64,000 nucleotides of DNA from Dehalococcoidia bacterium (GTDB taxonomy: Bacteria > Chloroflexota > Dehalococcoidia > Plut-88900): positions 288,001-352,000 of the forward strand of contig CBDBLV010000004.1 of NCBI GenBank assembly GCA_965207225.1, read 5' to 3'. The notes under the pieces were generated by a model. It did not search any database and was not told where the DNA came from. It worked only from the letters and a program-made list of their open reading frames with translations. The translations under genes and the position numbers were made by a program. Shown piece by piece: positions 3,287-20,482 of the stretch (positions within the stretch are counted from its first letter, which is position 1; every line of letters starts with the position of its first letter).

Positions 3287-3409
3287 GGATCAAGCGTCCT
3301 TGTGAGTTGGGCCGCACAGATGCTCCCGTGCGGTCGTGGCGATTATAGGAATCGCCCAACAACACGGTCAAGAAACTCCGCCTCCCTCCCCGTCCCTCCC
3401 CCTAATCCG

Positions 3410-3740
3410 CCATTCCGGCCCCCGACCCGGAATCCATCCCCCTCCCCTCCGTCATTCCCGAGTAGTCGGGAATCCAAGGGTGGGGTGGTGCGGGGTGTCC
3501 AATCCCCTCCCCGTAGGGGCGACCGGCGGGTCGCCCTGGGGCGGGGCCGCTCATGCTGAGGTCGCTCGAAGCATGTCCTGAGCTACGTCGAAGGGTATGA
3601 GCGGGGGGGAGGCCCGCGCCTTGCCAATTGTCACCCCCTGTCAGTACAATCCAAATCCCTCCAACCCATCACGCTTGTCTTCCACCATTCCGCGCCCTCC
3701 CCTGTAATTCCGATGCCCCGCGAGGAATCTGGGGAGGGGT
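3410..3740 (+). repeat. Cluster of short palindromic REP-like repeats
   Basis: ATTCCC-N8-GGGAAT at 3454-3473; GTAG-led palindrome at 3513-3537; CCTGAG..GTCGAAGG unit at about 3575-3596; 24-mer ATTCCGATGCCCCGCGAGGAATCT at 3707-3730. These unit types recur at 17.3-17.6 kb and 44.5-45.6 kb. Confidence 0.8.
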
Positions 3741-3759
3741 GGGCGGGCCCCTCTCCCCC

Positions 3760-3960
3760 CAGTACCGAACTAGAGGCAGGGGTTGGCGCATAAGCGCCAA
3801 CCCCTGCCTCTGTTTTTTCTCCCCCTCTCCCTTATAGGCCCTAAGGGAGAGGGGGATCAAGGGGGTGAGGGTTCCCCCTGCTACACGCGAAATCCCCCGC
3901 AATCCCTTCAGCCGTCATTCAATCAAACCAGCTACGAGTTCAATCAACGTTCAATCAAAA
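3760..3960 (+). repeat. Composite ~200 bp dispersed repeat, copy 1 (two hairpins plus TTCAATCAA array)
   Basis: Homologous to 45640-45878; 18-bp stem at 3772-3811 followed by a T-tract; CCCCTCTCCC/GGGAGAGGGG hairpin; three TTCAATCAA copies. Confidence 0.85.
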
Positions 3961-4021
3961 CTCTCCCGGTCGGCGACCCATTTGTAACCCCGAAACCTCG
4001 ACCCTATAATTGAAACCCGCC

Positions 4022-17269: not shown

Positions 17270-17650
17270 CCTCATCCGTCATCCCAGAATCCGATCGAGA
17301 ATCAATTCTCTGGGGTGGTGCATTCCGCTCGTCCTGAGCGGAGTCGAAGGGTCTCAAAAGCGGAATAGGTGGGGTGTCCCCCTCCCTTGAGGAGACTTTT
17401 GAATAACTGTCATTCCGATGCCCCGCGAGGAATCTGGGGTGGGGGCCTCCTTCCGTTCCCTCCCCCGTAGGGGCAATCCCTCGTGGTTGCTCTAGGGCGG
17501 GGGGTGGCCCACGCCTCGCCAACCCGTCTCGCCCCTCCAAAACTAACCACCACATTCTCCCCTGTCATTCACAATTCCGATGCCCCGCGAGGAATCTGGG
17601 ACGGGGTCCGTCCTCTCCTTGTAGGGGTGGCCCACACCGGCCACCCCGCC
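17270..17650 (+). repeat. Cluster of palindromic REP-like repeats
   Basis: GTCCTGAGCGGAGTCGAAGGGT at 17331-17352; 24-mer at 17412-17435 and 17574-17597; GTAG-led palindromes at about 17467-17493 and 17621-17647. Confidence 0.8.
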
Positions 17651-17687
17651 ACTTATGCCTCCCTCAAAAAATGGAAGGGGAAAACCC

Positions 17688-17715
17688 TTGACTCCTATAA
17701 CAGTCGTGCTAAACT
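17688..17715 (+). promoter_or_regulatory. Sigma70-type promoter of candidate ncRNA A
   Basis: TTGACT-16 bp-TAAACT with extended -10 TG; no credible protein ORF before katG, about 650 bp downstream. Confidence 0.7.
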
Positions 17716-17721
17716 ATCTCT

Positions 17722-18285
17722 AGTTCGAACTAATAAGCTGTGACATAAGGAGGAACCAAAAAACCCAGGGAAGCCCCCGAGACCCGCCCCAGAGGATGTA
17801 ACCCCCGAGACGTCCGGGACGCCATCCCCTCACACGGGTCCCGTGCCCCTTCCCTACCCATCCAGGCGATGGAAGGTCCACAACATTAAGCGGCACGCTC
17901 CTCACTTAGGAGACCTGCCGAAAAACCTCGGGCCTTACGGCCCTTGAAAAATCTCCCCCGTCGTTCCCCTCGGAGATTCCCATAAACCCAGCGACGGCAG
18001 CGAGAAAACACCCACCCACCCCTCCGAGTGGGTCGGGAAAACTGAAAAACTGGTGGCAGAGACGCCCTCTGGCGAGACCCCCTCGCTTGTCTGCCACGTG
18101 ACACAGGAACACGGGGCTGAACCAGGTGGGCCTCCCGCCCCCTGAAAACCGAGTCCCGGACCTTCCATCGCCGACCCAAAACCAGACAGACAGAACGGAA
18201 AACGAGCCCCACAACAAGAGAAAACACCGGTGCCTCATCAACCCACCGAGCCATCGCAAACTCTTCCAAATGGCGGTTGTTGATG
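17722..18285 (+). ncRNA. Candidate large structured ncRNA, paralog A (family unrecognised; ends approximate)
   Basis: 15-bp long-range helix 17865-17879/18158-18172 encloses several hairpins with A-rich linkers; architecture shared with 44897-45466. Confidence 0.7.
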
Positions 18286-18292
18286 CTACTAT
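18264..18292 (+). promoter_or_regulatory. Putative katG promoter
   Basis: TTCCAA-17 bp-TACTAT with extended -10 TG, about 70 bp upstream of the katG ATG. Confidence 0.45.
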
Positions 18293-18307
18293 GTCGGCAG
18301 CGCGTAG

Positions 18308-20482
<2,175 letters not shown>

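Follow-up and report, generated by a model that had tools for sequence, protein, structure and literature searches.

A dispersed, folded element upstream of katG in a Dehalococcoidia genome and its apparent descent from a terminase large-subunit gene

Introduction

The Correia/NEMIS repeats of Neisseria and the REP, BIME and ERIC repeats are short dispersed sequences of 30-160 nucleotides (nt) that are bounded by their own inverted repeats, are often co-transcribed with neighbouring genes, may supply promoters and fold into stems within the message. Small RNAs that arose from prophage genes or pseudogenes are single-copy, short, non-coding transcripts of phage-coding descent. In pilS/pilE silent-cassette conversion, partial and diverged copies of a gene segment lie between conserved flanks and are exchanged between loci. 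The phi29 pRNA, a structured RNA of the phage packaging motor, is single-copy, phage-encoded and not derived from the ATPase gene. Promoter reuse in prokaryotes has led to the concept of putative mobile promoters, in which similar promoter-bearing upstream regions stand before unrelated genes, within a genome and between relatives (PMC3575422, in the part of the article available). Here we describe an element upstream of katG, at positions 17865-18172 (+ strand) of a 64-kb stretch of a Dehalococcoidia bacterium genome (assembly GCA_965207225.1, contig CBDBLV010000004.1, positions 288,001 to 352,000), hereafter the window. Judged from profile and protein comparisons, the core of this element derives from the nuclease-domain coding segment of a terminase-large-subunit-like (terL) gene, and a protein-coding segment seems to have turned into a family of structured RNA-like elements.

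Results

A strongly folded element closed by a long-range helix

Direct reading of the sequence bore out the perfect long-range helix noticed in a first-pass annotation of the window: the 15 base pairs (bp) of the 5' arm (17865-17879, GGCGATGGAAGGTCC) are exactly complementary to the 3' arm (18158-18172, GGACCTTCCATCGCC). The inner hairpins listed in that annotation were likewise all found in place on the + strand. They comprise a CGGCAC...TGCC hairpin (17891-17919), a GC hairpin GGGCCTTACGGCCC (17930-17943), the helices CCGTCGTT/AGCGACGG (17958 and 17990) and ACCCAC/GTGGGT (18014 and 18028), and a block of the form GGTGGCAGAGAC...GTCTGCCAC...GGGGCTG (18052-18119). The CCGTCGTT/AGCGACGG helix belongs to a sub-domain termed Pa/Pb (17949-18011, + strand), which also contains an outer helix of 4-6 bp and a C-rich loop. 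The + strand RNA of 17860-18177 gave a predicted energy of -136 kcal/mol, compared with -100.1 ± 4.9 kcal/mol in 100 dinucleotide shuffles (z -7.33, none of the 100 as good); fold z-scores throughout compare predicted minimum-energy folds with those of shuffles. The antisense of the same segment folded less strongly (z -3.34). No Rfam 15 family, the large bacterial ncRNAs included, reached its gathering score anywhere in the 64-kb window, and at E values up to 10 only noise-level matches appeared around the 17.9-kb and 44.9-kb loci.

Relation of the core to a terminase large-subunit gene

The host genome (G000; 4.03 Mb on five contigs) contains two helix-closed copies, designated 'S4', that lie inside intact open reading frames (ORFs) of 462 and 464 amino acids (aa). 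The element segment corresponds approximately to residues 229-365 of this TerL-like ORF. At the place of the closing-helix arms the intact gene encodes DDGRF (5' arm) and G(T/P)SIV (3' arm), and terL genes were the only protein-coding carriers of the arms among the flanking and carrier ORFs. In a Foldseek search with the AlphaFold model of the ORF (mean pLDDT 65.6), the top 31 matches were all large terminases, including T4 gp17 (E 1e-13), HK97 (4e-12), D6E (4e-12) and Sf6 (1e-10); matches to these four terminases ranged from E 1e-13 to 1e-9 with a model of modest confidence. The G20c nuclease domain matched the model with a TM score of 0.69. The PHROG profile 'terminase large subunit' matched the ORF at E 1.5e-4, PF17289 is recorded on some of its more than 3300 homologues, and a portal gene (PHROG portal, E 3e-7) lies 3' of the TerL-like gene in one copy and in 17 of 30 loci examined. 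Pfam returned no match for the ORF itself and neither did a sequence search of the PDB; in a profile search of the PDB the three best matches were terminase nuclease domains, yet at E 0.7-0.8. Because the direct Pfam and PDB sequence searches were empty, the TerL-like identity rests on the fold search, the PHROG match, PF17289 on the homologues and the portal neighbour. PADLOC defence models matched neither the TerL-like protein nor ORF1 nor the portal N-terminus.

The katG element belongs to the S1 type, whose 308-nt core (17865-18172, + strand) is non-coding and folded. A profile of S1 matched the intact terL gene at E 1.5e-6, and S2, S3 and S7 at 1e-11, 5e-7 and 2.6e-10, respectively. With the TerL protein as query, tblastn detected all nine S3 copies, five of six S1b copies and three further clusters; none was detected in S1 (0/34), S2 (0/7), a shorter S3 cluster (0/7) or S5/S6 (0/9). 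Translated in the frame that corresponds to terL, the katG copy gives GDGRSTTLSGTLLT up to the first stop; stops fall after 14 and 78 codons. The + strand ORFs that overlap 17865-18172 are all short, and the 34 S1-like copies differ from one another by many indels of 1-2 nt. An S1 copy fails as a terL gene, as its frame is not open and it spans only the nuclease-core segment. The non-coding copies have lost the reading frame, kept the fold and hold a perfect closing helix. The region upstream of the S1 core had looked by eye like the upstream part of terL, S7 and truncated terL copies; this resemblance was rejected, with z of at most 1.3 in all eight local-alignment comparisons (200 shuffles).

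A protein search with the TerL core matched 134 of 201 Dehalococcoidia genomes, once in each and in rare cases twice, and gave 12-24 matches per genome in the seven genomes of the host genus that were searched (G000, G001, G003, G005-G008). Genomes of the genus each contain several full-length terL paralogues (loci L125-L138) in three protein lineages, VSDDGRF..., VTGNGRFLNSN... and VTGNGRFIDHN.... Truncated terL copies with a near-intact nuclease core are also present; in these the upstream part is frame-shifted and the nuclease core is open. The 245 IMG/VR viral contigs with TerL relatives carry proteins of 50-56% identity, none of the genus type. A small recurrent module was observed that comprises a 134-aa ORF (ORF1), a 78-aa membrane-type ORF and the TerL-like gene, in many cases with a portal-like gene after it (C1:233071-235075 and C5:239473-243300 in the host genome; loci L095-L124). 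It occurs once in 134 of the 201 Dehalococcoidia genomes sampled, very small complete genomes included, and could represent either the conserved remnant of a prophage or a packaging module resembling a gene transfer agent.

The relative at 44.9-45.5 kb of the window

A larger relative of S7 type lies at 44897-45466 (+ strand), a putative fragment of terL origin in which the core domain stands twice in tandem (45044-45106 and 45206-45268). It is preceded on the same strand by a predicted promoter (TTGCAC, 17 nt, TG-TATAAT; 44611-44639), a Shine-Dalgarno sequence AAAGGAGT (44691-44698) and an ATG at 44702. Its conceptual translation aligned to the TerL-like protein by BLASTP with 40-52% identity (E 1e-17 to 1e-21) in one frame, with the central part duplicated. 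In four of the five S7 copies the terL-like part can be read without interruption, its indels (78, 162, 6 and 3 nt) being in frame; the copy in the window has a 1-nt deletion that breaks the frame after 82 codons. The translation KLRSTNGGHGSSL is near ELRSTNAGHGS(T/P)L of terL lineage C.

The 17.9-kb element had been proposed to be a single-domain paralogue of this locus. The likeness indeed exceeds chance: in a whole-genome search with a profile of 34 copies of the 308-nt type, matches were obtained at 45023-45206 (E 6.6e-6, profile positions 63-256) and 45211-45372 (E 0.16, profile positions 91-260). These matches, together with those of a covariance model of the Pa/Pb sub-domain (R1, described below), are in agreement with one core domain at 17.9 kb and two in tandem at 45.0-45.4 kb. 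The R1 matches at 17949-18011, 45044-45106 and 45206-45268 arise by construction, because all three are among the 17 seeds of the model. The 'RNA architecture' common to both loci is an inheritance from the nuclease-domain part of the protein-coding terL gene.

A family of modular copies in one genus

The description of the element as multicopy and modular held true. The genome contains 14 full-length copies of a 318-nt stretch at 90-100% identity, distributed over all five contigs, and at least 48 helix-closed relatives. Searching for the arms with up to three mismatches each and pairs within 1.5 kb yielded 49 pairs, from which 6 poorly matching ones were discarded by eye; the 43 retained pairs and the five S7 copies bring the total to 48 elements, 305-657 nt long, with the 43 helix-closed ones spanning 305-488 nt. 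Subfamilies of 305-570 nt can be told apart: S1 (308 nt, 14 copies), S1b, S2, S2b, S3, S5, S6, S7 and 'S4'. A base bias of C over G and A over T on one strand is common to all. The copies remain alignable beyond the arms, upstream for about 150-500 nt and downstream for about 60 nt; the closing helix is therefore not the edge of the repeat. Upstream of the copies, -35 and -10 boxes of three sequence types stand at the aligned place and are followed by a leader. In relatives, four loci (L053, L060, L062 and L065) represent a 435-nt subtype with two tandem, shortened (about 45-nt) Pa/Pb sub-domains, so domain duplication took place more than once in the family.

The S5/S6 elements (C1:69717-70023, C1:91119-91579, C5:911761-912219 and relatives) share leader and tail with the other types and are closed by a compensated version of the helix (GGCGATGGAAAGACG...), with cores of 305-467 nt. 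Apart from the lack of TerL similarity in all nine copies, a comparison of these cores with the rest of the genome returned only their own copies and low-complexity matches. The scaffold alone is therefore common to S5/S6 and the terL-derived types.

BLAST searches found the family in all eight other species of the genus, and thus in all nine genus genomes, in none of three other genera of the same family (0/3), and, as a weak match, in one of 29 other families. An exact arm-spacer-arm pattern with a spacer of 270-300 nt was counted 14 times in the host genome, 8, 4, 2, 1, 1, 1, 0 and 0 times in the other eight genus genomes and not at all in three sister genera; a reversed control pattern was absent from every genome. 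S1-like copies of different clades of the genus are about 76-80% identical. A 17-mer across the 3' arm had a single match on viral contigs, which was rejected as a family member and ascribed to chance, since the S1 profile does not recognise it.

Conservation of the fold

Subfamily and terL segments were each compared with 24 shuffles. The z-scores were -6.7 for S1, -5.9 for S2, -6.7 for S3, -3.9 for S5 and -4.4 for S6. The terL segments of the host genome reached -4.7 and -5.7, and a truncated terL copy -4.1. The terL genes of four other species of the genus gave -5.1, -9.4, -7.8 and -4.2, and 11-12 of their first 18 bases pair with the 3' end. The 17 orthologous segments from outside the genus ranged from -2.4 to +1.5; 11 of the 17 showed no pairing at all between their first 18 bases and the 3' end. 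The protein at the position of the 5' arm reads GGGGF outside the genus and DDGRF within it. In this genus the terL segment is predicted to have an unusually stable fold closed by a long-range helix, the intact paralogues included. The helix consists of 15 perfect pairs in the non-coding copies compared with 9+6 pairs with a bulge in the terL genes, and at least three compensated versions of it can be distinguished, those of S1, of S5/S6 and of the terL lineages.

In an alignment of 23 gapless terL segments (A2), 96.8% of the predicted pairs were paired, compared with 95.6 ± 0.2% in shuffles (none of 500 as high); double-change cells numbered 25 versus 8.3, and slid partners were 34-53% paired. 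A terL hairpin over a hypervariable protein loop presents CG, GC, UA, GU and AU at one pair. An alignment of Pa/Pb from 17 coding and non-coding members (A4, gapless, MAFFT) was 85.1% paired against 80.4 ± 1.1% (0/500), with a covariation score of 0.245 versus 0.170 (0/500); partners slid by 1-3 columns were 31-49% paired. The 63-position covariance model R1, built from A4 with its 17 seeds, found 92 instances in 428 kb, non-seed S3 types among them. The 77 distinct sequences of the resulting alignment (A5), which is fitted to the model, were 86.5% paired versus 80.4%, with 72 double-change cells versus 37. G:C/G:U alternations are numerous and are compatible with one strand only. The view that sequence had diverged while pairing was kept was thus upheld across subfamilies, where the score, the double-change cells and the paired share beat shuffles, and was not upheld within S1, which lacks covariation, or by the count of pairs with a double change, which does not rise above shuffles. 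On balance these folding models lend moderate support to a fold that is kept on the sense strand.

Promoter and transcription of the element

A consensus scan placed a sigma-70-type promoter (TTGACT, 16 nt, TG-TAAACT) at 17688-17715 (+ strand), in line with the earlier proposal that the locus has a promoter of its own; the scan gave two promoter-like sites versus 0.3 ± 0.6 in shuffles. The leader that follows (17716-17864, + strand), delimited by the flank alignment of 14 copies and a repeat-coverage map, is common to most subfamilies and predicted to be transcribed. It holds AAGGAGGAACC (17747-17757), downstream of which there is no start codon, and ends with CACGGGTCCCGTGCCCCTTCCC immediately 5' of the closing helix. 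On the other side, the copies have in common an A/C-rich, G-poor tail, GACCCAAAACC...CCCCACAAC... (18173-18240, + strand), which contains no intrinsic terminator. The scan found no + strand terminator-like site between the element and katG; Rho is present in the genome. On the antisense strand, GC hairpins each followed by a T run lie within 17675-18033, giving five terminator-like sites versus 2.1 ± 1.5 in shuffles. The element could therefore block opposing transcription and let sense transcription pass.

Three RNA libraries, from two studies, yielded contigs that span the leader and the 5' arm and continue into S3-type cores; an S1-like core is covered as well, and two overlapping contigs extend from the 3' arm across the tail as far as the start of katG. 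No cover was seen over 17300-17700 in three RNA runs, a region that is not conserved between relatives and is therefore uninformative on the transcript start. A standalone non-coding RNA, as the first-pass annotation had it, is plausible. One contig of an S1-like relative (run X22) lacks 86 nt within 18016-18103, that is, the GGTGGCAGAGAC...GTCTGCCAC arm; this gap may be a natural deletion variant of the relative or an effect of assembly.

The katG site and other genomic neighbours

The gene katG (18362-20482, + strand; 706 aa, from the ORF list) is the downstream neighbour, lies outside the element and occurs in all nine genus genomes. A promoter region of its own, TCTTCCAAA...TGCTACTAT (18268-18322, + strand), is conserved in all nine species, including four without the element, and the scan marks TCGGCA-17-CATAAT at 18294-18322. 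The katG site is occupied by S1 in three species, by an S3-type core with similar flanks in two and by only a 230-nt spacer in four. The KatG protein of one S3-type species is 99% identical to that of the host. Five further orthologous sites carry cores of different size in relatives. By sequence comparison, cores thus appear to be exchanged between copies at orthologous sites. One site that is filled in two relatives holds other repeat modules in the host genome. When filled and empty katG sites were compared, these came from diverged clades and gave no exact insertion edges.

The genes 3' of ten other S1 copies are unrelated to each other: leuS, nusA, moaA, those for fructose-1,6-bisphosphatase, PrpD, a family III CoA-transferase and an M24 peptidase, and three amidohydrolase genes. 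The ten proteins belong to nine different Pfam families (two share Amidohydro_2), with katG in addition. This agrees, as do the four of nine species without an element before katG, with the earlier statement that the element is not a katG leader. By a crude custom ORF filter, 38 of 47 elements share the direction of the gene downstream; the gene upstream runs in the same direction in 22 cases and in the opposite direction in 26. The copies occupy promoter-side intergenic DNA and point at the next gene. GC skew is irregular along the contigs, and the elements showed no strand pattern with respect to replication.

Clustering of 332 flanking ORFs revealed no recurrent transposase-like neighbour, in an analysis that included no search aimed at transposase families. 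Reverse transcriptase domains (PF00078) gave six matches at four loci, none near the listed elements. The four genes (C2:158087-158773, C5:1548409-1549095, C5:1553608-1554405 and C5:1671488-1672288) comprise a pair that scored identically in the search, each with a 586-aa open frame, and a second pair whose open frames are about 640-650 aa long. At 3380-3990 and 45480-45760 of the window, the intergenic DNA is pieced together from other repeat modules, which recur near many elements and near terL genes. These are short hairpin modules (GTCATTCCCGAGTAGTCGGGAATCC; ATTCCGATGCCCCGCGAGGAATCTGGGG), a strong terminator-like module (CAGTAYYGAACTAGAGGCAG...CTGCCTCTGTTTTT followed by CTCCCCCTCTCCCTT...GGGAGAGGGGGATC) and a short tandem module of TTCAATCAA type.

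Discussion

We place about half of our confidence in the following reading. The katG element would be a transcribed, fold-constrained RNA module that was exapted from a terL fragment, was spread and reshuffled by recombination, and acts in cis as a promoter with a structured upstream transcript. Transcription would start from the element's own sigma-70-type promoter and yield a structured RNA of about 0.5 kb, which would end by Rho action in the C-rich tail or be extended by read-through into the neighbouring gene. Selection would act on the sense-strand fold, and homologous recombination across the common leader, helix and tail would account for spread and core exchange. The most likely effect in cis would be an extra promoter and a long, stable, structured upstream transcript for any downstream gene, in other words a 'mobile promoter' with a structured RNA body. 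The element is not a ligand-sensing or katG-specific device.

Several results weigh against this reading. The cis benefit is unneeded at the katG site, because katG retains its own promoter. The RNA-library contigs are assemblies that give no strand, ends or single transcript and may include DNA carry-over, and the orientation counts depend on the crude filter mentioned above. No mechanism of first insertion was found, and the comparisons of the leader and the S5/S6 cores turned up no source for either. Within S1, RNAalifold predicted 74 pairs, only one of which had a double change, and 99.2% of pairs were paired both in the alignment and in shuffles (223 of 500 as high); most of these 74 pairs therefore receive no support from covariation in the within-S1 alignment. 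Double-change pairs showed no excess over shuffles in A2 (3 versus 3.0; 359/500), A4 (6 versus 4.2; 68/500) or A5 (7 versus 5.7; 106/500). The structures were derived from the sequences on which they were tested, A5 was fitted to its model, and the sequences are related. Finally, concerted change of both arms is also typical of transposon ends.

The element could instead be a selfish or neutral dispersed repeat: a terL pseudogene fragment with a chance promoter and inverted repeats, copied by recombination between repeat modules, whose RNA has no role and whose fold is inherited baggage or an aid to its own copying, for example as a single-stranded-DNA recombination hot spot. The high identity of the copies, their cassette-like core swaps, the mosaic of other repeat modules around them, the lack of a functional theme among neighbouring genes and the missing covariation within S1 all fit such a repeat, and the S7 copies, with the frame broken in the window and open in four of five, look like decaying pseudogenes. 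We nevertheless consider it somewhat unlikely. Intact terL genes of three lineages have retained the fold through many synonymous changes and the orthologues tested outside the genus lack it; the non-coding copies improved the helix to 15 perfect pairs from the 9+6 with a bulge seen in the genes. Promoters of three sequence types at one position and the strong orientation bias (38/47) are also difficult to reconcile with a neutral repeat, as is the 76-80% identity of S1-like copies between clades whose katG intergenic DNA is too diverged to reveal edges. The presence of fold and helix in intact terL paralogues of exactly the genus where the copies multiplied could also point to a trans-acting element of the terminase-portal module. 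The fold would then be an RNA or folded-DNA signal for the small ORF, the TerL-like protein or the portal, and the copies decoys, regulators or packaging starts. The amplification of terL in the genus (12-24 protein-level matches per genome versus 1-2 elsewhere) and the way in which subfamilies track terL lineages (S7 KLRSTNGGHGSSL and lineage C) are consistent with this possibility. Its binding or packaging role is, however, putative, G:U-dependent pairing and the weaker antisense fold disfavour a double-stranded DNA site, S5/S6 possess the scaffold and no terL-derived core, and the 3'-arm 17-mer occurs in no true family member on viral contigs; we regard it as unlikely. Still more doubtful is the more specific proposal that the terL-embedded signal and its roughly fifty promoter-driven copies before host genes are start sites for a domesticated gene-transfer-agent-like packaging machine, or decoys for invading phage terminases.

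Perfect 15-bp arms common to subfamilies with different interiors, concerted variants of both arms and dispersal over all five contigs would also be expected of a miniature inverted-repeat transposable element (MITE) whose arms are transposase-bound terminal inverted repeats. We judge this very improbable and largely refuted, as the arms are internal both to the conserved unit, which continues for about 150-500 nt on one side and about 60 nt on the other, and to the reading frame of intact terL. In addition, no direct repeats adjoin the arms in the copy alignment, where the outer ends of the larger unit are not definable, and no transposase-like ORF recurs beside the copies. The position of the element 190 nt upstream of katG, on the same strand and with no terminator between, would suit a katG leader or a riboswitch-like sensor of oxidative stress. 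Near-identical copies before leuS, nusA, moaA and the fructose-1,6-bisphosphatase, PrpD, CoA-transferase, M24 peptidase and amidohydrolase genes leave next to no room for this idea, as do the four of nine species that have katG without the element, the two of nine with a different core and the lack of an Rfam family match. With no tie to one gene family or pathway, it is refuted for practical purposes.

If our reading is true, the family would be an unusually clear case of a protein-coding segment that became a family of large, structured, non-coding elements, with the intermediates coexisting in one set of genomes: intact paralogues, truncated open copies, a duplicated-domain pseudogene and fully non-coding types. 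The terL genes would further represent a coding gene whose conserved enzyme domain is overlapped by a nucleic-acid fold that is strong and specific to the lineage. Each genome has about fifty natural insertions of promoter plus structure before housekeeping and catabolic genes, which makes cis effects testable. Were the packaging-signal reading true, the genome would contain a genome-wide network of terminase-derived signals. For annotation, the case is a warning that candidates for novel ornate RNAs picked by eye may be gene-fragment repeats. A literature search of main texts found nothing joining Dehalococcoidia, terminase and sponge and nothing on terminase-large-subunit gene fragments as repeated non-coding RNA; the dehalococcoid gene-transfer-agent literature, in the parts available, contains nothing on this subject.

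Among known systems, the Correia/NEMIS and REP/BIME/ERIC repeats resemble the element in being dispersed and in having a promoter and stem structures. The present element differs in its length of 300-570 nt, its 8-12 helices, the conservation of flanks beyond the helix and its traceable gene origin. It is like MITEs in its inverted arms, many copies and differing interiors, but its arms are internal to a conserved unit and to an intact gene, and neither target duplication nor a partner transposase was found. Like the small RNAs born from prophage genes and pseudogenes, it is non-coding and apparently descended from coding sequence of phage origin; here, in contrast, there are about fifty large copies per genome and the fold is already predicted in the intact parent genes. 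The pilS/pilE system likewise has partial, diverged copies between conserved flanks and exchanges segments, whereas the copies here carry promoters and no receiving expression locus is evident. Most copies are out of frame and therefore, unlike pilS cassettes, unable to donate coding sequence. The likeness to phi29 pRNA, a structured RNA together with a packaging motor, bears only on the terminase-portal possibility, and the Rfam scan was negative. The closest described concept is that of putative mobile promoters (PMC3575422, in the part of the article available), since the S1 copies place a near-identical promoter-bearing region before non-homologous genes. The unit described here differs from these in that it is about 0.5-0.7 kb long and consists mostly of a highly folded body with a probable origin in a protein-coding segment, and in that its subfamilies are diverged and their cores exchangeable.

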